Shown in pieces: positions 9,290 to 48,362 of a DNA stretch of 64,000 nt. Source of the DNA: Candidatus Dojkabacteria bacterium. GTDB lineage: Bacteria; Patescibacteriota; Dojkabacteria; SC72. Below the pieces are notes generated by a model. That model was not told the origin of the DNA. It ran no database searches and was given only the letters and a program-made list of their open reading frames with translations. The stretch spans positions 167,995 through 231,994 of the forward strand of contig JAGPFQ010000001.1 in the NCBI GenBank assembly GCA_018056375.1. The letters are read 5' to 3'. The position numbers were made by a program, and so were the translations under genes. Each line of letters begins with the position of its first letter. Positions within the stretch are counted from its first letter, which is position 1.

Positions 9290-9359
9290 TCTGTCTCTTC
9301 GTTTTCCGTACACAATCATGTATACTAAAACTAGCTAATTAAGTTGTTAGTTAATATAT

Positions 9360-10781: not shown

Positions 10782-10832
10782 ACTAATACTCTACCTTGTT
10801 GGAAAAGATTTATCAATATGATAAATTAAAGT

Positions 10833-12449: not shown

Positions 12450-13489
12450 ATAATATTTACCTCGCTAGTTAATTCTACTCCATACTCATCCATAACACTC
12501 TTTTTCATTGCTTCGATATAGTCGAGAATTTCCTTTCCTGTTGCTTTCATATTTGTTACTACACAGAGTGCATGTCTTTCAAATGTTGCTACATTACCAA
12601 TCTTCTTTCCTTTCCAACCTAGCTCATCTAGTAATCTTCCAGCAGGAATCTTTAGATACTCTTCACTGTATCCTTCTGCAGGGTATGATTGAAGTTCCTC
12701 TATTATTTTAGATAGCTCATTAAATTTCTCTACAGTTACAATTGGATTAGCAAAGAAACTTCCAGCTGTTCCATATTCTTCTACACTAGGTAATCTCTTT
12801 CCTCTCTGCCTAATGATAGCTTCCATAACTTCTTGAATACTGTATGGCTCTTTAGCAAAAGAGTCTAATTCTTCTTTTAGAGACCCATATCTTCCTGCTC
12901 TTTCATGGTAGCTAAGTTCAAATTCTTTTGTATGTTTTGTTAGTTTAAATATTGTTGATGTAATTAGGTATTTGTTTTGCCATATGTTCTTAAAATTGCT
13001 TTTTCTGTATCCATATCCACACTCTTCTGGTTTTATAACCTTCTCTTCGAATGTTTTGATATCTAGGATATTTATCTTTTCAACAACCTTACTTATCTCT
13101 TGTCCATATGCACCGATATTTTGAGATACACCACCTCCAACAGTACCTGGTATCATAACCATATTCTCAATTCCAGCATAGTCATTCTTAACACACCATC
13201 TTACAAATTCATCCCAAATCTCTCCTGCACTAGCTTGAACATATACATATTTTTCATCTTCTTTAACTACATTTATTCCTTTTAACTTAGGGATTAGTAC
13301 TAGTCCATCCCAATCTTTTGTGAACAATGTGTTACTTCCACCTCCAAGGATAATGAGGTTTTCATCTTTGAACTTTTCTAGAACCTCTTTTATCTCTTCA
13401 ATTGTTTGAGGTATTGCTAGATATTTAGCTTTTACATCTACCTTAAAGGTATTGTAATCCTTTAATGAGGTGTTTTTTTTGATGTTCAT
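12446..13489 (-). CDS. murB: UDP-N-acetylenolpyruvoylglucosamine reductase MurB
   Basis: FAD-binding GGGSN motif, MurB C-terminal domain. Confidence 0.8.
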   Translation of the reverse strand: MNIKKNTSLKDYNTFKVDVKAKYLAIPQTIEEIKEVLEKFKDENLIILGGGSNTLFTKDWDGLVLIPKLKGINVVKEDEKYVYVQASAGEIWDEFVRWCVKNDYAGIENMVMIPGTVGGGVSQNIGAYGQEISKVVEKINILDIKTFEEKVIKPEECGYGYRKSNFKNIWQNKYLITSTIFKLTKHTKEFELSYHERAGRYGSLKEELDSFAKEPYSIQEVMEAIIRQRGKRLPSVEEYGTAGSFFANPIVTVEKFNELSKIIEELQSYPAEGYSEEYLKIPAGRLLDELGWKGKKIGNVATFERHALCVVTNMKATGKEILDYIEAMKKSVMDEYGVELTSEVNII

Positions 13490-23668: not shown

Positions 23669-25450
23669 CTACTTAACCGTAACAGACTTAGCTAAATTCC
23701 TAGGTCTATCCACATTGTTCCCTAACTTAACAGATAGGAAATATGAGATTAATTGGAATGGTATAGCATTACTAATACTAGAAATATTACCAACCTCTGG
23801 AGTCTCAACATACCTATCAAATACCTCCATCTTACTAAAATCCTTACTACCAATACCTACAGTAAAAGCACCTCTTGTCTTTACCTGTTCCATAGCACTG
23901 ATAAGGTCAGCACTATCCTCACTCTCCTTTGATGGAATAATACCAAATACAACTGTACCCTTCTCTATCAATGCAATCACACCATGCTTAAGTTCTCCTG
24001 CTGCAAAACCCTCAACATGCTTGTATGATATCTCCTTAATCTTAAGAGCTCCTTCAAGTGCAATAAATGCATTCTCTCCTTTACCTAGGATAAAAGCACT
24101 ATCTTTCTTTACCATGTAGTTTGAAATATCTTTAATATTTTTAAAACTCTTCTCTGTAAATAGCTTTACTATCTCCTTAGACACCTCTTTAATATTCTTT
24201 TTAGCTGTTCGATATTTCCCTACAATACTCATGGCTAAGAGATAACCCCATGCACACTGTGCTGTAAATACTTTTGTAGATGCTACACATATTTCAGGAC
24301 CTGAGTTTGTGTAATATTCAAAATCAGAAAGCATACTCATAGCAGTAGCATGCATATTAACAATGCTTGCAACCTTACATCCTTTCTCCTTCATCTGTTC
24401 AATAGCTTCAATTGTATCTGCTGTCTCACCACTCTGTGAAAATGCAATTACAATATCTCCTTTTTTAACAATAGGTAGGTAAGATTTAAATTCATAACTC
24501 TTAACCTCTTGAGCATCAATATTAGCAATATTCCTTAAGAAATATGCTGTCTGTCCTGCTGCAAAACCAGCAGTACCAGCACCTACTAGATATACTTTCT
24601 TTCCTTTCTTAATCTCTTTAACTAACGGTTCTAAATCTTTCTCTGTGTAGTTTGTTGCAAAGAGTAATGTCTCTTTCTGGTCTACTATTTCCTTTATCAT
24701 AAAATGGTCAAACTTCCCCTTCTCTATCTTGTTGTATTGATACTTCAACTCCTTTATCTCAACCTTTTTCTTTTTGTTTTTAAGAATATTAAATATTTCA
24801 ATATCCTTACCATCAATCTCTACCATATCGTAGTTTTCTAGTAATACAGCTTTGTTTGTTGCTGGTGAGAAAGAGAGTGTGTCTGAAGCTAGATATATAC
24901 CATCTTTAGCAATACCAGCAACTAGTGGAGACCCATTTCTAAGGGCATATATCTTTCTATCTTCATGACTTAATACAGCTACTGTATTCCTACCTTCTAA
25001 CTTTTTGAAAACATGAATGATAGCTTCTTTGAGAGACATCTTATCTAATTCTTCCTCTATTAGTCTTACAATTACCTCTGTATCTGTTTGTGAGATAAAT
25101 TTAACACCTTTTTTAATTAATTTTTCTTTTAATTCAGCAAAGTTTTCCACTATACCATTCTGTACAAGAGTAAAATCACCTCTTGTTGAAATGTGAGGAT
25201 GTGTATTTATTTTCGTTACACCACCGTGTGTAGCCCATCTAGTATGTCCAATACCAACAGTGCCTTTTGGTAGTTTCTTGAAAGCATCATGTTCTTTGAT
25301 TTCACCAATATCTTTGTATTGATATATTTTATCTTTTCCTAATATTGCAATACCCCATGAATCATACCCTCTATATTCTAATCTTTTTAAACCTTCAAAA
25401 ATCATATCATTACACTCTTTAGTTCCAGAATATCCAAATATGCCACACAT
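23669..25450 (-). CDS. glmS: glutamine--fructose-6-phosphate aminotransferase
   Basis: N-terminal MCGIFGY nucleophile Cys2, two SIS domains, 593 aa. Confidence 0.95.
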   Translation of the reverse strand: MCGIFGYSGTKECNDMIFEGLKRLEYRGYDSWGIAILGKDKIYQYKDIGEIKEHDAFKKLPKGTVGIGHTRWATHGGVTKINTHPHISTRGDFTLVQNGIVENFAELKEKLIKKGVKFISQTDTEVIVRLIEEELDKMSLKEAIIHVFKKLEGRNTVAVLSHEDRKIYALRNGSPLVAGIAKDGIYLASDTLSFSPATNKAVLLENYDMVEIDGKDIEIFNILKNKKKKVEIKELKYQYNKIEKGKFDHFMIKEIVDQKETLLFATNYTEKDLEPLVKEIKKGKKVYLVGAGTAGFAAGQTAYFLRNIANIDAQEVKSYEFKSYLPIVKKGDIVIAFSQSGETADTIEAIEQMKEKGCKVASIVNMHATAMSMLSDFEYYTNSGPEICVASTKVFTAQCAWGYLLAMSIVGKYRTAKKNIKEVSKEIVKLFTEKSFKNIKDISNYMVKKDSAFILGKGENAFIALEGALKIKEISYKHVEGFAAGELKHGVIALIEKGTVVFGIIPSKESEDSADLISAMEQVKTRGAFTVGIGSKDFSKMEVFDRYVETPEVGNISSISNAIPFQLISYFLSVKLGNNVDRPRNLAKSVTVK

Positions 25451-25469: not shown

Positions 25470-25605
25470 AAATTTGGGAACTGTTAGTTACTTTTTGGAA
25501 TTGTAGTAACTTTTAGGTCAACAGTATGACCTGAAGGTGTCCGCTGATAGTTCGATAACCTTCACCTCGTAGTAGTTTCCTTAAGACTACCCATACGCTT
25601 TTATA
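25470..25605 (-). promoter_or_regulatory. glmS ribozyme (GlcN6P-responsive self-cleaving leader) upstream of glmS
   Basis: the minus-strand leader contains ACGAGGTGAAGGTTATCGAACTATCAGCGGACACC, matching the conserved glmS-ribozyme core GACGAGG-UGGAGGUUAUCGAAUUUUCGGCGGAUGCC; preceded by an AAGCG cleavage-site-like start. Confidence 0.7.
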
Positions 25606-25656
25606 TTAAATATCCCTGCTTACATATTACAGGATATATAGAAACAGTCAAGATAC

Positions 25657-33485: not shown

Positions 33486-36400
33486 TTACAACGGTTTAAA
33501 TCCAACTTCTTTCTTGTATACAGATCTATCTACATCAAAGAAGTTTTCTGCAAATTTAGTATATTTAGGATGGTAGTTAATGATTAAAGCTGGTCTTAGA
33601 GGATTATCTGCACCTAGGTTTCTTTGTAGAACGAATGAAGGAGATTCTCCTCCAATACCAAAGGCAATTAGTCCTCCTACTAGTAATACTTGGTCATGGT
33701 TTTCACTTACAGCTGCATCTTGAGCTATCGTTATTCTCTCTTTAGCAAGTAGGAATGCATCTATTCTGTCTGTACCACCAGTAGCATGTCCATCGTTTAC
33801 AATGATGTTCTTTTCTGAGAATACAAATATTGCATCATTGTTACTAGTTGCTTGGAGAGCTCCTGTTATTGTTATGTTTCCTTGGGAATATATTAAAATT
33901 TTACCAGTGTATTTAAAACTTCCTATTGTTAAATCTTTGTCAGATTTAATATAGCATCCCTTATCGGAAGAGCAGTGCCAATGAGTTGCACTTGGGATTA
34001 TTTCATCTGACAGCTTTTTGTCCATAGATGAGTTTGCTTCTCTCTTTAGTGCTTCATAGAGGTTTACTTTGTTTTGCTCATTTGTATCTTCTACTCCTTT
34101 TGCTACTGCTGGGTTTCTATGCTGTTCTGTACCTCCAAACATGAGGACTTCCCTTATTGGGTCTATACCATTTGCTTTTGTTGTTAATAGTTCTGAACCT
34201 AAGTTGTAAAAGTTAATATTAGGTTCTAGTTTTTTAGTTTCGTACTTAACTGTACCTTCTGAGTAAAATATTCCTCCTTTGGTAGACATCCATCTGTTGT
34301 AATCAAAAGGATCTGGGTCATCTGGGAATGGAGGTTCATCTGGATCTGGGTTTTGGTCTTGTCTACCAGTTCCACCAAAGTTACATGCTCTGTCATAGAG
34401 GGTTACATCGAACTTCAATGTACCAGAGGCTGTGTCACCTGTGTTAACAATCATATTTGTGGAATTACCATTGGAGTTTGTAGGATGATACCAACCACTT
34501 GTAATTACGATATTACCTTGTGCATCATAGCCGATATTACCCATCTCATCTGCACTGAGATTACCTGGTATTACTGCTTTTACTGGAATCGGAAGTGTTC
34601 TTGTTACCTCCTTTTTAGATGAAGAGCTAACATTTACAACTGTATGAACAATTTGAGAGTTAGGATGTCCTTTATCTGTACTGGTCCATTTGAGTTGTAG
34701 GTTTTTTTGATCTTCTGTTGCAAGTCTATCAAGTGTTATTGCTGTTAATCTAGGATTTTTAAAATCAAAGTTCCATATCTGTCCTGTATTTTTAACAGAC
34801 CTAATATCTGCAAAGTATCCATGTGGTTGGGTTGGGAAGAGTGTTAGATTATCCATCATACCTGTCCATATTTGGTATCTACCAGACAATGGTATGTTCT
34901 TTTCAAATTCGATTTTAATTGTCATATCTGTTGTATCTGTAGGATTTTGTGCATTCTTTACACTTTCCAGTGTTATTGTAGCTATTTTTGTTCTTTTACC
35001 ATTATTGTTTACATATATGTATGGTTGTTGAATATTTGAGTTCTGTGGTACATCTCTACCCCAACCTTCAAAACCATTTCCATTATGTGATTTATATATG
35101 CCACCCATGGTATGAACCATTATCCCTATCTTATTTGGGTCTGATAATGTTGCACCTGGTCCTACGCCTGTGAGTGTGTTTCGTTCATTATCGATTGTAC
35201 TTCCTTCTTTAACTAACCAGAGTACTGCAGCATTTATTCTGTGGTTTGCATCATCTTGTTCTGCTGCAAGATTAGTATTTATATCTCTTCCCTTTATTGT
35301 AAATGTGAGAATTCTGTTAGCTTCATTACCAGTGTATCTTGCTTCTGGTGTACATCCTTTAGCAGTGTTACCGGTTGTATTGCCTGTTACAGTTGTAGAG
35401 ATTACAGTAGGTGGTGTGTTTACTACGAAGTTGACTGATTTTGTAGTACCTTTGACCCAATTATCATCACATTTGTTTAGTGTTTCAAAAAAGGAAGAGA
35501 GTGTACCTTGATTTCCAGGGTTAAGTGATGGTGCTGTAGTTGGGATGTTGATAAAAGAGTTGAAGGGATTATCAACATTTAAGGTTCTTAGAATACCATT
35601 TAGTGTTACTCTTAAACCTCTTGCAGTGCTAGGTATACCAGGATTGTTTGTTTCTGTCCTTATCTCTGATGTTTTGTATGGATATCGAATTACTGTTCTT
35701 CTTGTAGAAGAGAGTGGTTGGTATGTCGTCCATTCGAAATTATTAATACCTAATCTTTCATATATTTTAATACTTGTAACATCAGCAGGAGATATGTTTG
35801 TTTCTGGTTTATAACAACTTTTGGTATTACAAATATTCATACCTCCACAACCGTTTTCTTGTATACAGTATGCATCTTGTCCTTTACATAGAGGACCTCC
35901 TTGTTCTGTCATTACATATTGATTATATTCTGTGGGGTCAAATGGTTGATTAGCTTCTTTGCAGTTATCCTCTACAACACATTTATTTGGAGGACATTGG
36001 GGTGTACAACCACCTCCTCCACCTCCTCCACCATGGCAACATTGTCCACTAAACAGTGTTCTTCCGGAATATTGATCAGGAAAGCCTCCTGGAATACAAT
36101 TACAATCATAATATGAAGGGATCGTTGGTGGACAACTGCCTGAATCACAAACCCCAACATCAAAACAGGGAGCAGTAGATCCTCGTTTGCAACACAAAGA
36201 TTCGTTATAGCAATAACGACCAGATGGTTTATCTCGACCTTGACATCTTTTATTAACACAATCTGTTATGCATCGAGGATCCTTTGTACATGTTTCTGGG
36301 GTTTCTTTTCTACATACACCGTTTGATACATCTTCATATGTCCAGCCTATTACAGGGGGTGGTTCTTGAGAGCACTCAAAAATAACTCCTTGAGGTGTTT

Positions 36401-36671
36401 CCCTATATCCTTCTGATCGACATTGTATTGAGACAGTTTCATTTACTTTTTTTTCATGTCCTCGCCCATCACACAGATAATAACTTCCAGGAAACTTAGG
36501 AGCAAAATCACCATAAGGACCATAACAGAGAGCAGGTATTACTCCTGTCTCATGATAACAATCATATGTTACATATGCAAATGATTGTTTTGATTTCAAA
36601 AACAGAGTAAATACTACTAAAACAAGTAAAAGACTTAAAAACAGTTTTTTAGTTGTATTTTGGACAGTCAT
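33486..36671 (-). CDS. large secreted protein with extremely Cys-rich N-terminal module and Gly8 tract
   Basis: signal peptide; about 36 Cys in the first ~260 mature residues; CHGGGGGGGGC; long beta-rich C-terminal region. Confidence 0.6.
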   Translation of the reverse strand: MTVQNTTKKLFLSLLLVLVVFTLFLKSKQSFAYVTYDCYHETGVIPALCYGPYGDFAPKFPGSYYLCDGRGHEKKVNETVSIQCRSEGYRETPQGVIFECSQEPPPVIGWTYEDVSNGVCRKETPETCTKDPRCITDCVNKRCQGRDKPSGRYCYNESLCCKRGSTAPCFDVGVCDSGSCPPTIPSYYDCNCIPGGFPDQYSGRTLFSGQCCHGGGGGGGGCTPQCPPNKCVVEDNCKEANQPFDPTEYNQYVMTEQGGPLCKGQDAYCIQENGCGGMNICNTKSCYKPETNISPADVTSIKIYERLGINNFEWTTYQPLSSTRRTVIRYPYKTSEIRTETNNPGIPSTARGLRVTLNGILRTLNVDNPFNSFINIPTTAPSLNPGNQGTLSSFFETLNKCDDNWVKGTTKSVNFVVNTPPTVISTTVTGNTTGNTAKGCTPEARYTGNEANRILTFTIKGRDINTNLAAEQDDANHRINAAVLWLVKEGSTIDNERNTLTGVGPGATLSDPNKIGIMVHTMGGIYKSHNGNGFEGWGRDVPQNSNIQQPYIYVNNNGKRTKIATITLESVKNAQNPTDTTDMTIKIEFEKNIPLSGRYQIWTGMMDNLTLFPTQPHGYFADIRSVKNTGQIWNFDFKNPRLTAITLDRLATEDQKNLQLKWTSTDKGHPNSQIVHTVVNVSSSSKKEVTRTLPIPVKAVIPGNLSADEMGNIGYDAQGNIVITSGWYHPTNSNGNSTNMIVNTGDTASGTLKFDVTLYDRACNFGGTGRQDQNPDPDEPPFPDDPDPFDYNRWMSTKGGIFYSEGTVKYETKKLEPNINFYNLGSELLTTKANGIDPIREVLMFGGTEQHRNPAVAKGVEDTNEQNKVNLYEALKREANSSMDKKLSDEIIPSATHWHCSSDKGCYIKSDKDLTIGSFKYTGKILIYSQGNITITGALQATSNNDAIFVFSEKNIIVNDGHATGGTDRIDAFLLAKERITIAQDAAVSENHDQVLLVGGLIAFGIGGESPSFVLQRNLGADNPLRPALIINYHPKYTKFAENFFDVDRSVYKKEVGFKPL

Positions 36672-36677
36672 AGTGCT

Positions 36678-38507
36678 TTATTTATAAAAATCTGCTTTAC
36701 TCGCTGGAGTATAAATAGCATTAAGTACTTGTTTTAATTTCTCAAAACCTTCAGGTGATTTAGGGCTGTAAAACACACAGGATGTAGCATCTTCAGATAA
36801 TGGTTCTTCTTCTCCCTTCTCCCAGTCTAAGTGTTTTTGATATACCTCCTCTATTCTTTTAAGACTTGCTTCTAATTCTCCTTCTTCTAGTTCACTTTTA
36901 ATATAGTAGGTTACATATCCAACTCTTCCAGTATATCCATCTTTAATTCCTGTCATATCTCCTATTATGTAATACTCTGTTTCTCCATTCTCTCCTTCTT
37001 GGAAAGTTAAGACAACATCATTCTCTGGTGCATTACCACCATCTATAGTAACTCCACATGTATGCTCATCTGAAAGAGTTACACCCAAACCTATTGGGGC
37101 TCCATGCACCCTAATCTTCTCACCTACTTTAGAAGGTGTACGAGTAGCTATATTGTTTTCATTAATTAAGAGATGTGTTAAAGTTGCCACGAGCGTATCG
37201 AGAGTCCCATTATTACCTCTTGGCCAGTTAAGTAATCTCTTAAATTCCTCTGTACTTATAATCTTTGCAACCTCTACTATTGAATACTCTTCCCCTGCTT
37301 TAAATGGTCCATTTTCCTTTTGATATTCTAAAAGGTTTCTAAAAAAGAGAGAGAGAACTAATTGTTCAGTAGTACTACCTTCTGCAAAGAGATTTCCAAC
37401 AGCAATTTCTTCACTTTCAGAACTTTTGGTAAAATTGATAGTTTCTCCTTCCTCTGTTTCTGCAGAGAGTACTACCACACCTACAGCAACATTCATAGCA
37501 ACTCCAGAGTGATTCCTAAGAGTCCCTACGGTGACACTCTCACCATTCTCACTTGTAATCTTTCTAGTTTCTAATAGTTCAAACTTTGTTTTTTCTGGAA
37601 TATCAAGGATTGTGACATGGTTCCAATAAGACTCTTTTACTTTATCTTCTCCAAATTCTCCCAATGAGAATAAAGGTAATTCATATAAGACAGTCCTGTA
37701 TCCTTCTTTAACTTCTACAATATAACCAGGTTCATGTTTTTCTATGTTGCTTGCTTTAAGTTCTCCTTCCCATTGCATAATGTCTAACATAGAATAATCA
37801 AACTCTTGTGGATCTATCTCTGGTATAGGTGTAGGTGTTGGGTCTAATGTCATAGTAGGTGTAGGTTCTAATGTTGGTGTTGGTTCTATCGTTTTTGTTG
37901 GTACCTCTTGATTAGGAATAGTTGTGTCTTCTATCTCCACATCGTTAGGAATAGAAGTGGAAGAAGATATAGGTATGTGTTCTTTAGGTTGTTCTACCTC
38001 TTTTACTGTCTGACAAGCAGGTGCAGATAATATGAAAGCTAAAGGTGCAGTAGTACGGAATATAGTCTCTGCTACTTCCTTTGGTGTTACATTGTATAAG
38101 GAATTAAGTACTTTATCTCTAACCCTTTTAAAAGTATCATCTTTTTCTCCTTTTACTGACTTCTGAGATTCTTGTAAAGCAAATTGAATGTAACTTCCAA
38201 CTGCATTACGAAAATCATCTGTCTTTTTTTCATCCCACTCTTCCATACCATCTACTAGGTCTTGATAGTCTTTCCTCAATTTCTCTCCATTATCTTCTTC
38301 ATATTTGTCATCTTGCATAAAACCAGAATTGGCAAGATGTTTTTTTAACTCAGCTAATTCCCATGTAGACATTTCACTTTTACCACTTTGTCCAAATGAT
38401 ATGACATCATCTATTTCAGAATCTATCAGCCAATCATCTATATGTTCTGTGTTGTTATAATTATTCGTGGCAGTTTGGTCGAACTTGTTTTTTTCTATAT
38501 CTCCCAT
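36678..38507 (-). CDS. hypothetical protein with acidic N-terminus, Pro/Thr-rich linker and C-terminal domain
   Basis: 609 aa; EPTPTLEPTPTMTLDPTPTP linker; no recognisable domain. Confidence 0.45.
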   Translation of the reverse strand: MGDIEKNKFDQTATNNYNNTEHIDDWLIDSEIDDVISFGQSGKSEMSTWELAELKKHLANSGFMQDDKYEEDNGEKLRKDYQDLVDGMEEWDEKKTDDFRNAVGSYIQFALQESQKSVKGEKDDTFKRVRDKVLNSLYNVTPKEVAETIFRTTAPLAFILSAPACQTVKEVEQPKEHIPISSSTSIPNDVEIEDTTIPNQEVPTKTIEPTPTLEPTPTMTLDPTPTPIPEIDPQEFDYSMLDIMQWEGELKASNIEKHEPGYIVEVKEGYRTVLYELPLFSLGEFGEDKVKESYWNHVTILDIPEKTKFELLETRKITSENGESVTVGTLRNHSGVAMNVAVGVVVLSAETEEGETINFTKSSESEEIAVGNLFAEGSTTEQLVLSLFFRNLLEYQKENGPFKAGEEYSIVEVAKIISTEEFKRLLNWPRGNNGTLDTLVATLTHLLINENNIATRTPSKVGEKIRVHGAPIGLGVTLSDEHTCGVTIDGGNAPENDVVLTFQEGENGETEYYIIGDMTGIKDGYTGRVGYVTYYIKSELEEGELEASLKRIEEVYQKHLDWEKGEEEPLSEDATSCVFYSPKSPEGFEKLKQVLNAIYTPASKADFYK

Positions 38508-39592: not shown

Positions 39593-40339
39593 CTACATAG
39601 AACTTAAAACCCTGTCAATATTGTATAGTAAGTCTTTCTTATCCTGTGCATTCTCCATTAACCATTCTAAATACTCTCTATCTGTCTTAACAACATCCTC
39701 AAGGTTATACCCTGCATACTTACCAAATGTAAGTGTACGAATATACTGTGGTTCTTTAGATATAGTCATCATATTCTCTGGTGTAAGTACAGAATTATGT
39801 TGTAAATAATCAAAAAGATTCTTAAGTACAATCACATCACCCATAGCATCATGTGGTAATATTTCAGTATCTTTTTCTTTTTTGTAAAGACCTAAATAAT
39901 ATCTAAGATATTGTAATGAATAGCTCTCAAGGTCTCTCTTGTTCTCATCTTCTAACATATTCCTAGCTACCTTAAGTGTACATATATATTTAGGTATCTC
40001 TATACCTTTCTTCTTAAGTACTTCCATATCAAACTCTACATTATGTGCTACCCATATATATTCCTTACCCAGGTTATTAAGATGTTCTTTTAGTGTAATC
40101 TCTGAGAAAAGAGTCATAGAGGTAGTATCTTGTACCATCCTCTCTTTAAACATAGGTTTGTCTTCTAGAAATTCAGGTGTAATATGGTGTACAGCCATAG
40201 CTCCAAACGATATATCTTGTTCAGGTTTAAAATATTCATTAAACTCCTTACCATCACTAGTTAGAAAAGCTAGTTGAATGATATCTTTACTCTGTACATC
40301 AGTTGTTTCTGTATCAAAAAAAAGAAATTTCTGTTCCAT
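39593..40339 (-). CDS. DEDDh 3'-5' exonuclease (DnaQ-like) with C-terminal extension
   Basis: Exo I motif FFDTETTD; later H/D motifs. Confidence 0.7.
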   Translation of the reverse strand: MEQKFLFFDTETTDVQSKDIIQLAFLTSDGKEFNEYFKPEQDISFGAMAVHHITPEFLEDKPMFKERMVQDTTSMTLFSEITLKEHLNNLGKEYIWVAHNVEFDMEVLKKKGIEIPKYICTLKVARNMLEDENKRDLESYSLQYLRYYLGLYKKEKDTEILPHDAMGDVIVLKNLFDYLQHNSVLTPENMMTISKEPQYIRTLTFGKYAGYNLEDVVKTDREYLEWLMENAQDKKDLLYNIDRVLSSM

Positions 40340-41148
40340 TACCTGACTATACTATCATATATGCTTCCAATTTTCCCACCATTCTCTTTAGCTATCTGTA
40401 TGAGTTCATTAAAATTATTCTTCAACCATTCTACGTCTCCTTCCCTGTTATGAAGGAGAAGTACTCTACCCTTTTGTTTGTAGTAGAGCTTTCTTAGATA
40501 GTCCATATCTTCTAACTCTGTCATGGTCCATCTCATGTTAAGGAGGTTGTTATCAGTAACCCACTTTATCCATACCCTATCAAAGTATCCATATGGAGCT
40601 CTTACACTCTTTATACTAAAGCTTTGATCTTGAAGTATATTTCTAAATATATCTGTAAAAGCATTAAAATCTTTATCTAACTCCTCTACACTTCTTTTTC
40701 TAGTATGGTCTGTGGTGTGATACCCTATCTCATATCCAGAGTTGTATATATCTCTCCATAGTTCTAGATGTTCTGGATTATGTGGATTGATATATATTGT
40801 GTTTGGGAAGAATGTTGCTGTGATATTGTATTCTCTTAATAACTGATACATTCTTTTTGTTTGTTCAAAGTTATACGAATCATCTATTGTTAGTACTAGG
40901 TTTTTACCAAATATTTCCCAGTTTTCTAGTGTATCATGTGGTAGTTTAAATCTATGAAAGCTATGTGCATTAATCTTAGGTCTGTGGGGTATGTAGTAGG
41001 TGAAGTGTTGTATTTGATTATCTGGTAATTGAAGGGTATATGTGTAGTGGTATTGTGATGATATATCATCGGTGTATTCATAGACGACTTTGTATTTGAT
41101 TGGTTTTGAGATAGGTTTTGTAAAGAAGAACATGTAGTATTTTAACAT
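40339..41148 (-). CDS. polysaccharide deacetylase (NodB homology, CE4)
   Basis: TIDDS motif 1; GYEIGYHTTDH motif. Confidence 0.7.
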   Translation of the reverse strand: MLKYYMFFFTKPISKPIKYKVVYEYTDDISSQYHYTYTLQLPDNQIQHFTYYIPHRPKINAHSFHRFKLPHDTLENWEIFGKNLVLTIDDSYNFEQTKRMYQLLREYNITATFFPNTIYINPHNPEHLELWRDIYNSGYEIGYHTTDHTRKRSVEELDKDFNAFTDIFRNILQDQSFSIKSVRAPYGYFDRVWIKWVTDNNLLNMRWTMTELEDMDYLRKLYYKQKGRVLLLHNREGDVEWLKNNFNELIQIAKENGGKIGSIYDSIVR

Positions 41149-41203
41149 ATTTAGAGGTAATAATATTGAGGTTAAAATTTATAGAAGGTATAATTAGGAT
41201 AGG

Positions 41204-41941
41204 ATGTTTAAACCAACTACAGAGAAAATAAAAAAGATTTACAAAGAGAGAAAGTCTCAAGTAGATTTTTTAGATAAAAAGGTATTTAAAGGTAAAACTA
41301 ATATATATATTGACTGGGCTAATGTGTTTTTTTGGCAAGAAAAACTTGGTTGGCATATTGAAGTCAAAAGGTTGAAGCAATTTCTATCCTCTTTTCAACA
41401 GGTTAATTCTATAAAAATATACCAAGGATATTTTGAAGGGAACAAGGTTGCTGAGCAGGAACTACTTGATTGGGAATCTTGGGGTTTAGAGGTTCGAAAA
41501 AAGCCCATTAAAGAGATAAATATTAGTATAGATTTGACTCCTTTTAGATCAGATGATACGACCGTTATTAATCGAGTAATGCTAAAACAGTTAGTTAAAA
41601 AATTACCAGTTAAAAGTATTGAAATAATAAATAAAGAGATAAGAGAATTGAATAGCAATGGAATTAAGAAACTTTCTATGCATAAATGTAACTTTGATGT
41701 TGAAATGACTAGTGATATGAGGATTGATTCAAGAGATGATGAGAAAGTAAAAACATTTGTAGTATGGAGTGGAGATAGTGATTTTGTAGATACAGTAAAT
41801 GCTTTAGGTAGTGATAATAAAAAAGTTGTTATTTTCTCAACAAAAGGGATGATTTCTTATGAACTTTCTCATTCTAAAGCATATTTCTATGATGTTAAAA
41901 ATATTAAAAACTTTATTTGTTGGAATAAAGAGATAGGGTAA
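41204..41941 (+). CDS. NYN-domain (LabA-like, PIN-like RNase) protein
   Basis: IYIDWANV N-terminal Asp box; VVWSGDSDF C-terminal motif. Confidence 0.6.
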   Translation: MFKPTTEKIKKIYKERKSQVDFLDKKVFKGKTNIYIDWANVFFWQEKLGWHIEVKRLKQFLSSFQQVNSIKIYQGYFEGNKVAEQELLDWESWGLEVRKKPIKEINISIDLTPFRSDDTTVINRVMLKQLVKKLPVKSIEIINKEIRELNSNGIKKLSMHKCNFDVEMTSDMRIDSRDDEKVKTFVVWSGDSDFVDTVNALGSDNKKVVIFSTKGMISYELSHSKAYFYDVKNIKNFICWNKEIG

Positions 41942-41950
41942 TAAAAGCAA

Positions 41951-41976
41951 AAAAGGGCTCTATTCAGAGTCCTTTT
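41951..41976 (+). terminator. hairpin plus T-run after the NYN gene
   Basis: GGGCTCT-attc-AGAGTCC followed by TTTT. Confidence 0.45.
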
Positions 41977-42090
41977 AAGCCATTGTCTTCTTGACATTAA
42001 GTCAACTGCATTATATCTAAAAGGTTTGTAGATGTCAAATGATGCATTAGTTTACATTAGCTGCGTCCAAGTATAATCTTGTAGTTAAAA

Positions 42091-42597
42091 CTAGAATCTA
42101 GGTTTTTCTTCACAATCTTTTATTATCTCAAGAAGACTTTTCCAATATTTAGAATTAACAAATTTTTCTACTTCTTTATTTGCAATCCTATTTATCTCTT
42201 TCTTTCCTACATTCTTTTTACCAATTACCTTCTTCATTTCATCTTCTAGACAATCCTCATGCCAGAATATATGTATATTAGGAAATTGTTTTTCTATCTT
42301 CTTCTTCTCTTTTTCCCAATTTTTAGGGAAATCCTCTTTTAGTTTATCTAAGTCAATGAAACAAATAACTATGTCAAAGTCTCTGTTAGAAGATGTTTGA
42401 TAGCATTTTTGTAGTATTGTTTCAGGACAACCACCTGATGCATTGTCTAAAAGAAAAATCCATTTTGATGTATGATACTTAAACTTCTTGAGAGAAGAGA
42501 GATTTTTTATGAAGGTTTTATCTTTCCTTCCTTCACCAAAGAGCAGTCCTGTATATGGATGCCCTGTACTAGATTTTGATGTTTGGGAATGCTCCAT
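42091..42597 (-). CDS. small TOPRIM-like protein (DUF4276-like), partner of the upstream ATPase
   Basis: GEG glutamate followed about 60 aa later by DLD (TOPRIM E...DxD pattern); 29-nt overlap with the ATPase gene. Confidence 0.5.
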   Translation of the reverse strand: MEHSQTSKSSTGHPYTGLLFGEGRKDKTFIKNLSSLKKFKYHTSKWIFLLDNASGGCPETILQKCYQTSSNRDFDIVICFIDLDKLKEDFPKNWEKEKKKIEKQFPNIHIFWHEDCLEDEMKKVIGKKNVGKKEINRIANKEVEKFVNSKYWKSLLEIIKDCEEKPRF

Positions 42598-43753
42598 ATT
42601 TTCCAGCTAGATATTTATTTAAAAAATTATCATCACTTCTTACACCATCTATTTTGTTTAATCTTTTAACAATGCTTTCTCCATCATTGTTCTTTTCTGT
42701 TAGATAGATTTGGTGCATATCTAGCTTGTTCATACTAGCAAGTGAGAGTGAGGAGAAGATTAGTTGTGCATGTCCATCAGCATTTTCATCAATGAAATAT
42801 GTAATTATCTTGTTTAGAGCCTCCGGGTGCAATCCTAGTTCTATTTCATCTATGATTGCGACTCCATTGTATTTGAGGGCTTTAAGTATCTTTGTCATTA
42901 AGAAGAAAATACTCTGTGTTCCTCTTGATTCGTAGAGGAAAGGAAGCCTTTTATCTCCGTGAGAGGTTGTATGTATACCTGATACCATATAGTCGGTAAA
43001 TGCACTTCCTTTTTTTACTTCTTTTTCTATTTCTATACTAGTTAACCCCAAGTCAAAATTCTTCATAACATCAAGAGTCTTCTCTTTTATCTCTGTGTCT
43101 CTTTCATATGATTCAAAGGCATCTATTTGGTAAGGAATGATATTGTGTTGTCCAATCTCATTTATATTAGTGTAGAAATTATTGAAATATTCTATGAGTG
43201 TATTGATTACTTCTATATCATAGAGAGATTTTAGGAATGGGATAAAGGAGATATCTTCTCTAATTCTTGGCAATATTGATGGTTTAAGATTTTTAAAATA
43301 CCTCTTGTTTAATTCTAATATATTATCTTTCTCCCTTTTGAAGAGAGTAACAGGCTGTGCTCCTTTTTTAATCTCTTTTACTATTAATATTTCTTTGTTT
43401 ACACTGTTTTCTTTTAATACCAATTTGTATGTAAATATGTTTTCTTTAATCTCAAAAACTATTTCAATATTGGTAGGTTTCTTGTTATTGAAGAAATTAC
43501 TGTATGGAATGAATATATTTTCTACATTACCATTTCTATTTAGATTTGTGAGAAAGTATCCAAGAAATCCAAAAAGTCTGATAACATTAGTTTTACCAGA
43601 AGCATTCGCACCTATGAAAGACGCTACTTTAGTTATCTGGTCTCCTTTGGGAGAGTTAAAGTAATCGTAGGAATCTTTTTTGTTTGCAGTAAAATCAATT
43701 TCTTGTCTCTCTTTAAAGGAGTAGAAATTGTCAAATGTTATACTTCTAATCAT
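42569..43753 (-). CDS. AAA_21/ABC-type ATPase of the OLD/AbiL/PARIS-AriA class
   Basis: Walker A GANASGKT, Q-loop/signature region, Walker B AIIDEIELGLHP, H-loop. Confidence 0.75.
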   Translation of the reverse strand: MIRSITFDNFYSFKERQEIDFTANKKDSYDYFNSPKGDQITKVASFIGANASGKTNVIRLFGFLGYFLTNLNRNGNVENIFIPYSNFFNNKKPTNIEIVFEIKENIFTYKLVLKENSVNKEILIVKEIKKGAQPVTLFKREKDNILELNKRYFKNLKPSILPRIREDISFIPFLKSLYDIEVINTLIEYFNNFYTNINEIGQHNIIPYQIDAFESYERDTEIKEKTLDVMKNFDLGLTSIEIEKEVKKGSAFTDYMVSGIHTTSHGDKRLPFLYESRGTQSIFFLMTKILKALKYNGVAIIDEIELGLHPEALNKIITYFIDENADGHAQLIFSSLSLASMNKLDMHQIYLTEKNNDGESIVKRLNKIDGVRSDDNFLNKYLAGKYGAFPNIKI

Positions 43754-43872
43754 AAGTTTTGTTAATTTTGAATATATTATACTTACCTAAACTAAGTATA
43801 CAGAAAAGAGACAAAGATTGCAAGTTGCTACAGATTGTTGTAGTAAACACCAAAGTGGTACTCTCTTAAATT

Positions 43873-45057
43873 GTGTATAATGAACTCATGGATGTAGAAC
43901 TTTCATCTAAACAGAAAAAGGTAGTAGATAGTATCTTAGATTGGTACAAGAGTAAGAAGACTCAGTATGTGACTCTAGGTGGATATGCAGGTACTGGTAA
44001 GACTACCCTACTTGGTCATCTTGGGAATATGTTGCATAGGGAGTATAAAGGGATTTCAATTGCATATTGTTCATTTACTGGTAAGGCTTCTTTAGTGTTA
44101 AAAAAGAAATTAGAAGAGAGTAAGTCTTTAGATCCTTCTGATTACATAGGTACTATTCATAGATTGATATACAAAGCTATTGTAGATGAGGATGACAACA
44201 TTATCGGTTGGGAGAAGATACCTGTTGATTCGTTTGAATATGATTTAATTGTTGTAGATGAAGCATCTATGGTCTCTGAAGATATATGGAATGATCTTCT
44301 TAGTTTTGAGAAACCAATTCTTGCTGTTGGAGACCATGGTCAGTTACCACCTGTTGAAGGTAAGTTTAATCTCATGGCTTCCCCTATGCTTCGTCTTGAG
44401 GAGATATATCGTCAAGAGAGAGGTAATCCAATTATCATGGTTTCAGAGCTAGCAAGAAAGTATGGAGATATCCCTGTTATGGAGTTCTCCTCTACTGTTA
44501 GGAAGTTTAGTAAGGAAGATGAGAACCTCCAAGAGTTTCTTTCAGAGAAGTTGTCTGGATATGATGAGAATATGATGGTATTGGTGGGATACAATCATAC
44601 TAGGGTGAAGTTAAATAACGGGATTAGGCAATTCTTAGAATTTGACAGTCCAAAACCTCAAATTGAAGACAGAGTTATATGTCTTAGAAACAATGCAGAG
44701 TTAGGTATATTTAATGGTATGTTAGGTACAGTTCAATCAATTGAGAAGAAGAATTTAGCAGATATGCTTGAATATTATGATGTTGATATACAGTTTGATG
44801 GAGAGGATAACCTATTCCATGGGAGTATGTCCGCTGAACAGTTTGGTCAGAGAGAAACTATGAGGAGTATTGGAAGAGAGATAGATCTTTTTGATTTCGG
44901 TTATGCTTTGACTGTACACAAAGCACAGGGTAGTCAAGCTGAGAAGGTTATACTTTTTGAAGAGAGATTTCCCAAGATGGATGATGATATGTGGAGGAGA
45001 TGGTTGTATACAGGTGTTACTAGGGCTGTTAGTGAGTTGTATATTGTTGGGAGGTAG
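43873..45057 (+). CDS. SF1B RecD/Dda/Pif1-like DNA helicase
   Basis: motif I GGYAGTGKT, motif II VVDEASMV, motif III AVGDHGQLPPV, C-terminal HKAQGSQ. Confidence 0.8.
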   Translation: MYNELMDVELSSKQKKVVDSILDWYKSKKTQYVTLGGYAGTGKTTLLGHLGNMLHREYKGISIAYCSFTGKASLVLKKKLEESKSLDPSDYIGTIHRLIYKAIVDEDDNIIGWEKIPVDSFEYDLIVVDEASMVSEDIWNDLLSFEKPILAVGDHGQLPPVEGKFNLMASPMLRLEEIYRQERGNPIIMVSELARKYGDIPVMEFSSTVRKFSKEDENLQEFLSEKLSGYDENMMVLVGYNHTRVKLNNGIRQFLEFDSPKPQIEDRVICLRNNAELGIFNGMLGTVQSIEKKNLADMLEYYDVDIQFDGEDNLFHGSMSAEQFGQRETMRSIGREIDLFDFGYALTVHKAQGSQAEKVILFEERFPKMDDDMWRRWLYTGVTRAVSELYIVGR

Positions 45058-45097
45058 AATATTATGTTATTTAAGAGAACATTCTACTATACTAGAA

Positions 45098-45153
45098 ATC
45101 ATGGATAAACCTAAGAGGACATTAAATCATGGATAAACCTAAGAGGACATTAA
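45098..45153 (+). repeat. perfect 2 x 28-bp tandem duplication spanning the start codon of the downstream ORF
   Basis: ATCATGGATAAACCTAAGAGGACATTAA present twice, head-to-tail. Confidence 0.9.
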
Positions 45154-45416
45154 ACAAACAAGAAGGGGAACTATTTCAACGAGCTGTTGCTTTTACAATC
45201 TCTGTTGCAGATAAATACAAAAATGACAGAGCATATGAAGCCGCTTTAGTAGGTCTTTATGTAGGGTTAAAAGCTTATACAGATAACGAACTCTCATTCA
45301 ACTTGGAAACATACTTACATTGGTTTGTTAAAACATCTATAGAATACGAGTTGGGGTACAAGAATAAGGATACAAAAATTTGGGGAGAGAAAAAAGAAAG
45401 TGCAGGGGAAAAATAA
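45129..45416 (+). CDS. small protein with weak similarity to sigma-70 region 2
   Basis: ALVGLYVGLKAYTDNELSFNLETYLHWFVKTSIEYEL resembles sigma region 2.1-2.2 (DLIQEGNIGL...FSTYATWWIR); 95 aa. Confidence 0.3.
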   Translation: MDKPKRTLNKQEGELFQRAVAFTISVADKYKNDRAYEAALVGLYVGLKAYTDNELSFNLETYLHWFVKTSIEYELGYKNKDTKIWGEKKESAGEK

Positions 45417-45570
45417 ATTCTTATTTCTCCCCTGAGGGTAGCTGTATTGTTGTTATTTATCGTTTACCTTACTTTGCTTGTGTGTCTGTTTTTGAGTCAC
45501 GATCTCTATCGAAAAGTTTCCCAAGAGGATTAGATATTACATCTAAATTTTGGTATAATGTTAAGTAGAG

Positions 45571-45622
45571 AGGTGGAAGCCACCTGGCCCCTTTGTGCCA
45601 GGACTAAGCTTCCACCTTTTTT
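45571..45622 (+). terminator. strong nested hairpin plus T-run, directly preceded by an extended -10 (TGgTATAAT at 45551-45559)
   Basis: AGGTGGAAGC...GCTTCCACCT outer stem with inner CCTGG...CCAGG stem, followed by TTTTTTG. Confidence 0.6.
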
Positions 45623-45717
45623 GTTATTTCCAAGATATCTATAACTCTTCTGTTTTTGATAATAATGATATTTAGATTTTCATTAAGCTTTTAGTTTACT
45701 TGTGTTAAAATTCCCAC

Positions 45718-46695
45718 ATGGTAAGTAAAGCATCTTTAAGTATAGAGAAGTTTAAACATATACTTTACTCTTGTTATGACTCCTCTACTGCATATGAAGC
45801 AACTAAAAAGATTTGGAGTAAAGAGAATAGATTTCTTGGTCAATGTGTAGTAACAGCACTTTTAGTTCAAGAATATTTTGGTGGAGATATTAAGAGAGGA
45901 TATATACCAGAGATGAATATGTCTCACTATTGGAATTATATTGATAGTAAGAAGGTTGTTTTAACAATAGAACAGATGGGTGATATATCAGATGTTAAGA
46001 TAAAGGATATAACTACTAAATCTAGAAATAACCTGCTAGAAAATGATTCAATTTCTACTAGATACTTCTTACTTAAGGAAAGAGTAGAGAAAAGGATAAA
46101 GGAGTGGGAAAGTTTAGAAAAGAAGATGTCTTTGTGTAGGAAGTGTAATATGCCATCATATTTTGAACATGATAGTGTACACTTTGGTAGTAATTGTGAT
46201 TTACTGTTTGTAGGAGAAGCTCCAGCAAAGAATGGTTGGAGGGTTACAGGTAGAGCTTGGTACAACCCTTCTGGTAATTTAGTTCCATCAGGTAAGGTTT
46301 TTGCTAAGTTGTTGGAGATAATAGATATTAGTGAGGTATCGGATATAACATTTTTAGAAGCAGTTCAGTGCTATCCGTTAGAAGGGAAAGTGAGGAGTGA
46401 GCATATAAAGAATTGTCAGCCTTTGTTAAGAGAACAGATATACCTGTTAGATCCATTAGTTATTATTCCTATGGGAGTAAAAGCTACGAAGGCATTATTA
46501 AATTTTACGAACTTTTCAGATGTTGTTGGTAAGTTTTCATCTGTTAGAATAAAAGGTAACGATTATAATGTTTTTCCAATGTATCATCCTTCCCCTATTT
46601 CACCAAAAAGTTTGAAAGATAATATTGTAGTATTTGAGAATCTTAAGAGGTATCTGTTAGAGATAGAGGATGAGAAGAGAAATGTAGTACTTTAA
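45718..46695 (+). CDS. uracil-DNA glycosylase superfamily (family 4-like) domain fused to an unknown ~150-aa N-terminal domain
   Basis: motif A GEAPAKNG; motif B HPSPISP; internal Cys cluster. Confidence 0.55.
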   Translation: MVSKASLSIEKFKHILYSCYDSSTAYEATKKIWSKENRFLGQCVVTALLVQEYFGGDIKRGYIPEMNMSHYWNYIDSKKVVLTIEQMGDISDVKIKDITTKSRNNLLENDSISTRYFLLKERVEKRIKEWESLEKKMSLCRKCNMPSYFEHDSVHFGSNCDLLFVGEAPAKNGWRVTGRAWYNPSGNLVPSGKVFAKLLEIIDISEVSDITFLEAVQCYPLEGKVRSEHIKNCQPLLREQIYLLDPLVIIPMGVKATKALLNFTNFSDVVGKFSSVRIKGNDYNVFPMYHPSPISPKSLKDNIVVFENLKRYLLEIEDEKRNVVL

Positions 46696-46860
46696 ACTCC
46701 TATATTTTATAAGTAATAATTCTTCTAATAGCTTATATCTATCTGAAAACAAGGTTAGTATTTTCATCTATTTTTTGATATAATTATAGATAGGAAGCAG
46801 GGTAGCACCCTCTGCTGTATTGAAATAATATACACAAGGCGGAGGTAGACGCCCTGCTTG

Positions 46861-47331
46861 CTATTTAAGTACAATCTTGTGCAGTCCTTTCTTATCATAA
46901 ACTATTATATTATTAATATATCTCTTCTTTGCTTTATTCTTAATACGAGAAGAATTATACTCACATAATCGTTTTAGAAGTTTTTCTTGAAGAATATTGT
47001 TTCCTAGATCTAAAAATATATTTCTTTTTCCTTTATCTACTGACTCATTAATCCTTTTAATAACAGTTCTTTCTGAAAAATTCTTTTTTAATATGCTTTT
47101 TAATTCCCATTCTTGATTATTCCAAATAAAATCATTGGTTGGATAATATCCTCCTGTTTTAGTATCTACAAGACTATCTCTCTTTATCCATTTAATATCT
47201 TCTCCTCTTTCTGTAAACCTTTTTACAAAATTTCTTTCATGTACCCTAAGAATATTGTTATCCTCATATTCTTTCTTTGTTAAACCAATTCTTCTGTATA
47301 TGGGAGTATTTAGAAAATTTTTCTTTCTCAT
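46861..47331 (-). CDS. basic hypothetical protein, possible PD-(D/E)xK nuclease
   Basis: NDFIW...EWELK pattern; 156 aa; Lys/Arg-rich. Confidence 0.3.
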   Translation of the reverse strand: MRKKNFLNTPIYRRIGLTKKEYEDNNILRVHERNFVKRFTERGEDIKWIKRDSLVDTKTGGYYPTNDFIWNNQEWELKSILKKNFSERTVIKRINESVDKGKRNIFLDLGNNILQEKLLKRLCEYNSSRIKNKAKKRYINNIIVYDKKGLHKIVLK

Positions 47332-47419
47332 ACCTACAGATTACTCTATAAATATGAAATATAGATTAAATGTAAAGGAAAGATTGGAATATGAAATGTA
47401 TTCGTAATATAATAAAACT

Positions 47420-48187
47420 ATGATAATCCAAAATGATAGAGAAGAAAATTTAATTACAGAAGCAGCTAAGATATCAGTAGAGATACTATCTAAGCTTGGA
47501 GATATGGTTAAGGAAGGTGTTACACCTCTTGAGATTGATGAATATGCTGGAGAGCTCTGTAGAGAGTACAAGGTACATCCTAGTTTTAAGAGAGTTAAAG
47601 ACTATTACCATAATACTTGTATCTCTGTTAATGATGTAGCTGTACATGGTATTCCTAAGGATATTCCTCTTAAGAAAGGAGATTTAGTATCTATTGATTT
47701 TGGAATTGTATACAAAAAGATGTATACAGACCATTGTTGGACATGGTGTGTAGGTAAGGCAGATGAAAAGAAGATGAAATTACTTCTTGCTGGTAGAAAA
47801 GCAGTTGAAAATGCTATACCTAAAGCTGTAGTAGGTAACAGAACAGGTGATTTAGGTTATGAAATGGAGAGAGAAGCTTTAAGGAATGGTTTTAATACAT
47901 TAAGTATTTATGTAGGACATGGTATTGGTAAGAGTTTACATGAATATCCAGAGATACCTGCATTTGGTAAAAGAGGTACAGGCTCTCTCCTAGAGGATGG
48001 TATGGTTATCTGCATAGAGTGTCAGGTTGTAGATGATGTTGATGATGTTAATATTGGTGAAGATAATTGGAGTGCAAGGACTATTAATGGTGGTAATTCT
48101 GTTATGTTTGAATATATGGTTATTGTTAGAAAAGATTCCCCTACTATACTTACTAATACTCTTGATTGGGGTGTGGAGAAGGTATAG
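47420..48187 (+). CDS. map: methionine aminopeptidase type I
   Basis: pita-bread fold metal-ligand motifs (D...D...HGIG...E...E). Confidence 0.9.
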   Translation: MIIQNDREENLITEAAKISVEILSKLGDMVKEGVTPLEIDEYAGELCREYKVHPSFKRVKDYYHNTCISVNDVAVHGIPKDIPLKKGDLVSIDFGIVYKKMYTDHCWTWCVGKADEKKMKLLLAGRKAVENAIPKAVVGNRTGDLGYEMEREALRNGFNTLSIYVGHGIGKSLHEYPEIPAFGKRGTGSLLEDGMVICIECQVVDDVDDVNIGEDNWSARTINGGNSVMFEYMVIVRKDSPTILTNTLDWGVEKV

Positions 48188-48362
48188 GTTGCTTTTATTT
48201 ATCATTTCATGGTATAATACTATAGGATTGTAAAAGATCCTAAACTGCTCATTAATAATAGATTCATTTATTCCTCAACTCCCGTTTTTATCCTACACAT
48301 AGGTCTTAATATGTGTATTTAGGTTTGTGTGTAGGATAAAAAACAAATAAAAGGAGAAGAAA

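Follow-up and report, generated by a model that had tools for sequence, protein, structure and literature searches.

We analyzed a 64,000-nucleotide (nt) stretch from a Candidatus Dojkabacteria bacterium (assembly GCA_018056375.1, contig JAGPFQ010000001.1, positions 167,995-231,994 of the forward strand), which is referred to in its full length as the window and to whose numbering all coordinates refer unless a contig is named. The host is uncultivated and belongs to the Dojkabacteria (WS6) of the Candidate Phyla Radiation (CPR), also known as Patescibacteria, the GC content of the window is ~33%, and the nearest public genomes are all metagenome-assembled genomes of Dojkabacteria. Our subject is the 6-kb stretch at 41204-47331, in which an ATPase/Toprim gene pair lies beside a helicase gene. 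An initial annotation had placed seven genes there, and all seven open reading frames (ORFs) were recovered in the same places. They were assigned as follows (aa, amino acids; E, expect value).

41204..41941, plus strand: LabA-like NYN-domain protein and predicted RNase, 245 aa (Pfam PF01936, E 1.3e-15, which passes the curated cut-off; PADLOC 'NYN', E 3.8e-9).
42091..42597, minus strand: divergent RloB/AbiLii-like Toprim protein of 168 aa (sub-threshold direct matches, conserved residues and profile links).
42569..43753, minus strand: AbiLi-like ABC ATPase of 394 aa, AAA_21/AAA_15 family (PADLOC AbiLi, E 2e-62; AAA_21, E 7.9e-30).
43873..45057, plus strand: superfamily 1B (SF1B) RecD2/Dda-like helicase with AAA_30, AAA_19, UvrD_C_2 and SH3_13 matches (phrog_325 'Dda-like helicase', E 1.8e-93; RecD2 model, E 8e-39).
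45129..45416, plus strand: lineage-restricted protein of 95 aa with no significant family match.
45718..46695, plus strand: fusion of YunG and a family-4-like Fe-S uracil-DNA glycosylase (UDG), 325 aa (YunG PF24585, E 3.9e-24; UDG PF03167, E 2.4e-18).
46861..47331, minus strand: free-standing basic PD-(D/E)xK-like protein of 156 aa, with invariant D67...E76-x-K78 and a match to the C-terminus of phrog_13257.

Catalytic or nucleotide-binding motifs are intact in the ATPase, the helicase, and the NYN, UDG and Toprim-like proteins. Most of the domain assignments of the initial annotation were thus borne out (NYN, ATPase, Toprim, RecD/Dda-like helicase and UDG fusion); its comparison of the 95-aa protein with sigma factor region 2 was not.

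In the ATPase, the Walker A motif is located at residue 48, the signature at 276, Walker B at 298 and the H-loop at 307. The ATPase and Toprim genes share a strand, with the ATPase gene first, and overlap by 29 nt, an arrangement that, as read from the gene layout, shows the two to be translationally coupled. An alignment of 27 members of the Toprim family revealed six invariant residues, E22, G23, D82, D84, E118 and E120. The three groups that these form, E22-G23, D82-x-D84 and E118-D-E120, correspond to the acidic, metal-binding Toprim glutamate and DxD signature. The AlphaFold model of the 168-aa protein (predicted local distance difference test score, pLDDT, 87) displayed a four-strand parallel alpha/beta core. 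Furthermore, the family profile reached distant proteins with Pfam RloB scores of 51.2, 38.3 and 34.3 bits, which exceed the cut-off of 31.5, and the RloB-positive proteins recruited in this way matched PADLOC AbiLii at E 5e-12 to 8e-9. An hhalign comparison of the Toprim family with the RloB-positive alignment gave a probability of 99.3% and E 1e-20, with the E, DxD and E motifs in register, a result that is partly circular because the RloB-positive alignment was itself recruited by the Toprim profile. The invariant residues and the profile evidence together support assignment to a Toprim family of the RloB/AbiLii kind. Homologues of the Toprim protein formed 33 clusters in a collection of 5.8 billion proteins and had 95 representatives among 1.84 billion proteins. 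Searches of the PDB with the Toprim family profile and with the ATPase sequence returned nothing meaningful, Foldseek of the Toprim model against the PDB gave no match at E <= 0.001, and tblastn of the Toprim protein against plasmids gave no match.

The pair recurs away from this locus. In three distant metagenomic contexts (L076, L077/L078 and L079/L080), a Toprim homologue lies directly 3' of an AAA_21 ATPase of 392-406 aa; these ATPases are 41-53% identical to that of the window by tblastn, and they have unrelated flanks. On plasmids, the best relatives of the ATPase (L081, L082) align over the full length at 27-29% identity, and each is followed by a gene annotated as 'RloB domain-containing protein'. 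One such plasmid pair occupies a 5.3-kb Photobacterium plasmid with only four genes, and another lies beside IS481 in a Vibrio plasmid. Within the Dojkabacteria loci, the ATPase and Toprim genes were found only in same-species strains and in the sister genomes L011 and L014. The range of contexts shows, at the level of gene neighbourhoods, that the pair is an autonomous unit that is also plasmid-borne. Judged by domain content and gene order, it is an AbiL-type module and the sole coherent system in the 6-kb stretch, in which the 168-aa protein is the predicted nuclease effector and the ATPase the predicted sensor and regulator.

One of the metagenomic contexts merits a separate description. 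About 1 kb downstream of its AbiL-like pair, L076 carries, at 8488-12995, genes for a UvrD helicase of 622 aa and an AAA_15/AAA_21 protein of 604 aa, which are possibly a Gabija-like system. This contig also has an integrase at its edge, and the locus resembles a true defence island.

The flanks of the 6-kb stretch consist of ordinary genes. To the left lie a polysaccharide deacetylase gene and then an ExoX-like DEDDh exonuclease gene, and to the right are genes for methionine aminopeptidase, thioredoxin reductase and NrdR/NrdD/NrdG. With the aminopeptidase gene as anchor, a synteny search brought up 65 loci of Dojkabacteria, each with as much as 10 kb of flanking sequence per side; all window genes were compared with the retrieved loci by tblastn, gap sizes were measured, and presence and absence were tabulated over 75 loci. 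At ~45 of the 65 loci, the helicase gene (55-78% identity) lies 22-60 nt upstream of the aminopeptidase gene on the same strand. The ATPase/Toprim pair is lacking from all these relatives except the sister genomes L011 and L014. In the next-nearest relatives (L015, L017 and L018), the ExoX and helicase genes are 60 nt apart and the helicase and aminopeptidase genes 24 nt apart, with nothing else in between. The comparison of loci shows an ancestral layout of ExoX-like exonuclease (minus strand), helicase (plus strand) and methionine aminopeptidase (plus strand), separated by gaps of 20-60 nt. Helicase identity tracked aminopeptidase identity (Spearman 0.71, n=39), to a degree comparable with ExoX (0.76) and NrdD (0.65). 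The helicase motifs are intact, and gene callers place its start at an ATG five codons downstream, which yields a protein of 389 aa. With the ancestral order and its small gaps, the helicase is therefore, to judge from synteny, a vertically inherited, housekeeping-type gene that does not belong to the defence pair. The initial annotation had seen no housekeeping genes in the stretch; for the helicase this is incorrect, and its place in a syntenic core at ~45 of the 65 loci also speaks against the island proposed there.

The initial annotation had also likened the helicase and the ATPase/Toprim pair to Gabija, in which GajA is an OLD-class-2 ATPase-Toprim protein and GajB a UvrD-like helicase. 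In its fullest form, this would be a single multi-gene system, with a split OLD-type ATPase/Toprim and an SF1 helicase, perhaps joined by the NYN, UDG and PD-(D/E)xK proteins, all gained and lost together. An ABC ATPase, a Toprim protein and an SF1 helicase do lie side by side here, with a divergent intergenic region of 119 nt between the pair and the helicase gene, and L011 and L014 have both of these, together with the 95-aa gene, at 95-99% identity. Both components also gave weak PADLOC matches, the ATPase to GajA (E 5.4e-7, covering its C-terminal part only) and the helicase to GajB (E 1.4e-7), the latter covering only the generic C-terminal helicase motif. The architecture differs, however: ATPase and Toprim are split into ORFs of 394 and 168 aa, whereas GajA fuses both, and the window helicase is of the SF1B RecD/Dda class and divergently transcribed, whereas GajB is an SF1A, UvrD-like enzyme of the same operon. 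Moreover, the pair was found in at least five other contexts (the three metagenomic ones and the plasmids) with no SF1B helicase beside it, and the helicase stands without the pair at the same position in ~45 relatives, diverging there in step with core genes. Co-occurrence thus contradicts a Gabija-like reading, as do architecture and helicase class, and the helicase is a chance neighbour of the pair. The NYN, UDG, 95-aa and 156-aa genes, for their part, differ in their presence/absence patterns. We regard a single Gabija-like system as very improbable.

Taken together, the data favour, at a probability of roughly 80%, a reading of the 6-kb stretch as a mosaic variable region that carries a divergent AbiL-like pair and is not one system, the two flanks of an inherited helicase gene acting as a permissive hotspot for insertions. 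The comparison of loci shows separate insertions on each side. Left of the helicase are the deacetylase gene and the two-gene AbiL-type module, with a 947-bp NYN cassette in some strains; right of it are the lineage-specific 95-aa gene, the YunG-UDG fusion and the small PD-(D/E)xK-like gene. Four further features belong to this description.

40339..41148, minus strand: polysaccharide deacetylase (Pfam PF01522, E 1e-16), part of the inserted block that now separates the ExoX-like exonuclease gene from the helicase gene.
41156..42102, no strand assigned: strain-variable segment of 947 bp, carrying the NYN gene, its own promoter-like site and a terminator hairpin.
41940..42038, minus strand: sigma-70 consensus promoter (TTGACA, 17 nt, TATAAT; 12 of 12 positions match) with a hairpin and a T-run.
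45096..45151, plus strand: perfect 28-nt tandem duplication, covering the ribosome-binding region and the start codon of the 95-aa gene.

The deacetylase gene is limited to same-species strains and the sister genome L011, and no other relative has it at the site. In other clades, the corresponding intergenic positions are occupied by housekeeping genes (for a DsbD-like membrane protein, FKBP, MarR, enolase or phosphoglycerate mutase) or by the gene of an IS200-like transposase. We noted, in the helicase-aminopeptidase slot of L037, L039, L046 and L057, an ORF of 157-173 aa that was read by eye as IS200/REP-associated tyrosine-transposase-like; such ORFs fit the idea of an insertion hotspot. 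The suggestion that the genes at 41204-47331 are gained and lost as a unit was not upheld by the context comparison, in which each gene has its own pattern of presence and absence. The description as a defence or mobile island can be kept in part. The accessory genes are of the conflict type and vary among close relatives, and the pair is of the defence type. The hallmarks of an island were not found: the region genes have no integrase or transposase domain in Pfam, the region has no tRNA gene (the nearest lie at 23.5 and 55.2 kb), a search for repeats and inverted repeats found no insertion boundaries and only short, chance-like repeats, and there is no GC shift (0.31-0.35 in the region against a window range of 0.31-0.38). 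Most likely, the NYN, UDG and PD-(D/E)xK genes are independent single-gene accessory functions gathered at one permissive site.

Several points weigh against the reading as a mosaic that carries an AbiL-like pair. On its own, the Toprim protein falls below the thresholds of both Pfam RloB (E 6.4e-4, 20.4 bits, cut-off 31.5) and PADLOC AbiLii (E 0.083), and a standard PADLOC/DefenseFinder run might therefore fail to call the pair. Foldseek of its model against OLD C-terminal regions and the GajA Toprim reached just E 0.02-0.05, and generic flavodoxin-like folds ranked higher. The viral contig collection yielded no relatives of the ATPase. At 16 loci, ExoX lies directly beside the aminopeptidase gene with no helicase there, so that the helicase, by this synteny, is lineage-conserved and not universally fixed at the site. 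Finally, the ATPase-helicase-95-aa segment may have been exchanged as one piece by homologous recombination among very close lineages, because the sister contig L014 is far closer to the window over these genes than at the adjacent aminopeptidase gene.

The L014 comparison itself was as follows. The DNA identity was 95.8% over the ATPase, helicase and 95-aa genes (L014 1-2661, window 42840-45528) and 81.7% over the adjacent aminopeptidase gene (L014 2958-3805, window 47408-48255). This jump in identity suggests a recent recombination or transfer, with an assembly chimera as the alternative.

The NYN protein displays the hallmark motifs IDWAN36 and GDSDF190. Among same-species contigs with an identical ATPase, the 947-bp segment is present in three (L002, L004 and L006) and missing from seven (L001, L003, L005 and L007-L010). 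The blastn alignment breaks at window 41154/42103, and strains without the NYN gene have 16 bp in place of the 947 bp. The segment alters the last codons of the Toprim gene, whose product is 168 aa long with the segment and 166 aa long without it. Its promoter, at 42010-42038 on the minus strand, is directed away from the Toprim gene, and the hairpin and T-run come ~35 nt further on. The candidate transcript spans 41940-42003 (minus strand), and the fold was scored at -17.5 kcal/mol (z -3.5). Based on this arrangement, the promoter and hairpin could yield an RNA of ~60 nt between the NYN and Toprim genes, either a small RNA or an antisense to the NYN 3'-end. No Rfam family was found for this candidate, and a regional search at E <= 1 gave only a spurious plant miRNA match. 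We also considered a functional tie between NYN and the pair, since L079 has a NYN gene 5 kb from its pair, and rejected it; the NYN protein of L079 is not detectably homologous to that of the window, and NYN is absent from most strains with the identical ATPase.

The 95-aa protein had been described as resembling sigma factor region 2. In Pfam at E up to 10, nothing but DUF3217 (0.031) was retrieved, so there is no Sigma70_r2 match, and the single PDB match of the family profile was RpoD region 2 at E 0.95. The resemblance is thus one of pattern and is not significant. Homologues of this protein form 14 clusters. At this site they were found only in L011 and L014 besides same-species strains, and elsewhere in Dojkabacteria they lie in unrelated places, for example between a peroxiredoxin gene and the gene of ribosomal protein L28. 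The 28-nt duplication at the start of the gene creates an upstream mini-ORF of 11 codons; it is present in strains L001-L003 and not in the sister genomes L011 and L014.

The UDG part of the fusion protein contains the motifs GEAPA166 and HPS290 and four cysteines, Cys140/143/218/233 (C-x2-C...C-x14-C). The match to the Pfam UDG superfamily is significant, and the scores with the NCBIfam family-4 UDG models, 54.5 and 62.8, are well short of the respective cut-offs of 125.3 and 250. The fusion gene is absent from L011, L012 and L014. Full-length homologues with 35-43% identity were detected at 11 metagenome loci, none of which has another gene of the cluster.

The 156-aa protein has no match in Pfam, and its homologues form only five clusters, two of which give weak matches to CdiA_C (PF18451). 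The model (pLDDT 83) matched the folds of XisH, Bax1, EcoT38I, BamHI, RecU and a splicing endonuclease, each weakly and all consistently of a restriction-endonuclease-like kind. In a scan of viral contigs, 19 loci carried a homologous domain (28-37% identity, PTNDF[IV]W...E[IL]K) as the C-terminal ~130 residues of a larger protein, the N-terminal part of which matched VG15, Phage_min_cap2, or Phage_portal plus Mu_F models, that is, minor-capsid, MuF and portal-fusion proteins. The conserved residues, the common theme of the folds and the phage homologues thus make the earlier PD-(D/E)xK assignment plausible, with a nuclease function as the prediction. An architecture of an N-terminal virion part and a C-terminal domain has been described for the MuF polymorphic toxins of temperate phages (PMC5576092). 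The 156-aa protein resembles these in being homologous to the C-terminal domain and in the weak CdiA_C matches among its homologues; unlike them, it is free-standing and has no N-terminal virion or trafficking domain. No plausible immunity-type ORF was found downstream of the 156-aa gene in the window or in the inspected viral loci, and the ORFs 3' of the phage homologues resemble scaffold proteins, without relatives in the window. In Dojkabacteria, the gene lies between the helicase and aminopeptidase genes in L012 (90% identity) and L064 (62%), without the UDG fusion. In L011, the same slot and strand (~9396-9884, minus) hold a basic protein of 162 aa that is only 23% identical and keeps the T-x-D...E-x-K...D motif; by its position, this variant looks as if one nuclease-like allele had replaced another in a fixed slot.

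These phage homologues bear on a further explanation, that the region is the remnant of a prophage or integrative element from which the Dda-like helicase, the UDG and the MuF-type C-terminal nuclease domain derive. The helicase does match phrog_325 (E 1.8e-93), the UDG domain a phrog for phage DNA polymerase and the 156-aa protein the C-terminal end of phrog_13257; the last also has the 19 relatives in phage capsid-associated proteins just mentioned. However, no integrase, capsid or terminase gene and no tRNA attachment site was found within 38-50 kb, the GC content does not deviate, the helicase is syntenic and vertically inherited, and the acquisition of the genes was spread over different times and lineages. 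The viral collection also holds no close relatives of the helicase, the NYN protein or the ATPase. We judge a prophage origin of the region to be highly unlikely. For these three genes considered individually, it was rejected on the absence of viral-contig relatives.

Several experimentally studied systems can be compared with the pair. AAA ATPases neutralize RloB/TOPRIM_OLD toxins, AbiLii being the toxic effector (PMC10440598), and pairs of an AAA ATPase and an RloB-TOPRIM protein are reported to act as toxin-antitoxin-like abortive-infection modules in which the toxin is the Toprim protein (PMC10440598). The best-studied mechanism of such pairs is that of PARIS, in which the ATPase is scaffold and sensor and a tRNA-cleaving nuclease is released (PMC11464382).

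The closest likeness of the window pair is to AbiL of Lactococcus lactis (AbiLi plus AbiLii). Both consist of two co-oriented, overlapping genes, of which the first encodes an AAA_21/AAA_15 ABC ATPase and the second a small Toprim protein, here probably of the RloB/AbiLii type, with the E and DxD residues kept. With AbiL and the wider group of AAA_21 plus RloB-domain pairs, it also shares the nature of an autonomous mobile pair that occurs on plasmids as well. The window pair differs from AbiL in a shorter Toprim protein (~160-170 aa against the 195 positions of the RloB model), in the divergence of that protein, which stays under the RloB and AbiLii thresholds and forms a small subfamily, and in its CPR host. 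In common with PARIS, it has a separate ABC ATPase and a Toprim effector, and the ATPase matches PADLOC AriA at E 7.8e-30. Unlike in PARIS, the effector is RloB-like and not DUF4435/AriB, with about half the size of AriB, and the ATPase matches AbiLi far better than AriA. The 168-aa protein gave no DUF4435/AriB match, including in PADLOC with the E limit raised to 10.

If the pair works like AbiL, PARIS and ATPase-neutralized Toprim toxins, an ATPase oligomer would keep the Toprim nuclease inactive and sense a phage cue. Upon infection, the ATPase would release or activate the nuclease, which, once freed, might cut tRNA or another nucleic acid. Such cleavage would stop the growth of the infected cell, resulting in abortive infection. 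Such a course of events is that of PARIS and has been proposed for AbiL. The trigger, substrate and phenotype are here transferred from these systems, and we place so specific a scheme slightly above an even chance.

Alternatively, the pair could be a toxin-antitoxin or addiction module without a role in phage defence, or a decaying remnant, with the region serving as a neutral dumping ground for selfish or orphan genes. AAA_21 plus RloB/TOPRIM_OLD pairs do act as toxin-antitoxin systems in toxicity-neutralization assays (PMC10440598), the presence of a pair on a four-gene, 5.3-kb plasmid fits plasmid addiction, the ATPase lacks viral relatives in the collection searched, and the defence phenotype is itself deduced. 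Conversely, both proteins retain all their catalytic motifs, conserved throughout the family, which argues against decay, and the same work as well as that on PARIS (PMC10440598, PMC11464382) classes such pairs as abortive-infection defence; the two roles are compatible. An exclusively selfish or decaying pair therefore appears improbable to us, if less so than a Gabija-like unit or a prophage remnant, and we retain the reading of a mosaic region with a predicted defence pair.

A bolder proposal, which we offer tentatively and hold to be doubtful, has two parts. The 168-aa protein and its ~95 representative relatives may constitute a distinct, minimal (~160 aa) subfamily of Toprim effectors that always occurs with an ABC ATPase of ~395 aa and is missed by current tools, perhaps as one of the few abortive-infection systems in the CRISPR-poor CPR. 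In addition, the helicase-aminopeptidase slot may hold alternative alleles, highly diverged from one another, of a nuclease domain that stands by itself and is of the type found in phage capsid-associated proteins, without a visible immunity gene, perhaps with an undescribed single-gene conflict function.

Two observations were made elsewhere in the window. The minus strand carries a glmS ribozyme at 25476-25610 (Rfam RF00234; its 49.1 bits exceed the gathering score), upstream of a 593-aa ORF at 23669-25450. Additionally, very large ORFs of 1940, 1061 and 609 aa lie at 2824-8646 (plus strand) and 33486-38507 (minus strand). The contig records show no Pfam match for the 1061- and 609-aa proteins, and their relatives, which are just 22-36% identical, suggest fast-evolving surface proteins of a kind typical of CPR genomes.

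CPR bacteria have tiny genomes in which CRISPR-Cas is rare, and the locus bears on how they resist phages. At this site, conflict genes build up singly, at a permissive position beside conserved genes, and not as a packaged island. The locus also counsels caution, in that an OLD-like ATPase/Toprim beside a helicase is not to be taken as evidence for a Gabija-like system unless both recur together across genomes. The ATPase/Toprim pair is a divergent, compact addition to a known type of system in a lineage whose defence repertoires are poorly known, and the rest of the stretch is ordinary accessory-gene turnover. A Dojkabacteria population thus carries a compact AbiL-type ATPase/Toprim module that standard models only half recognize.

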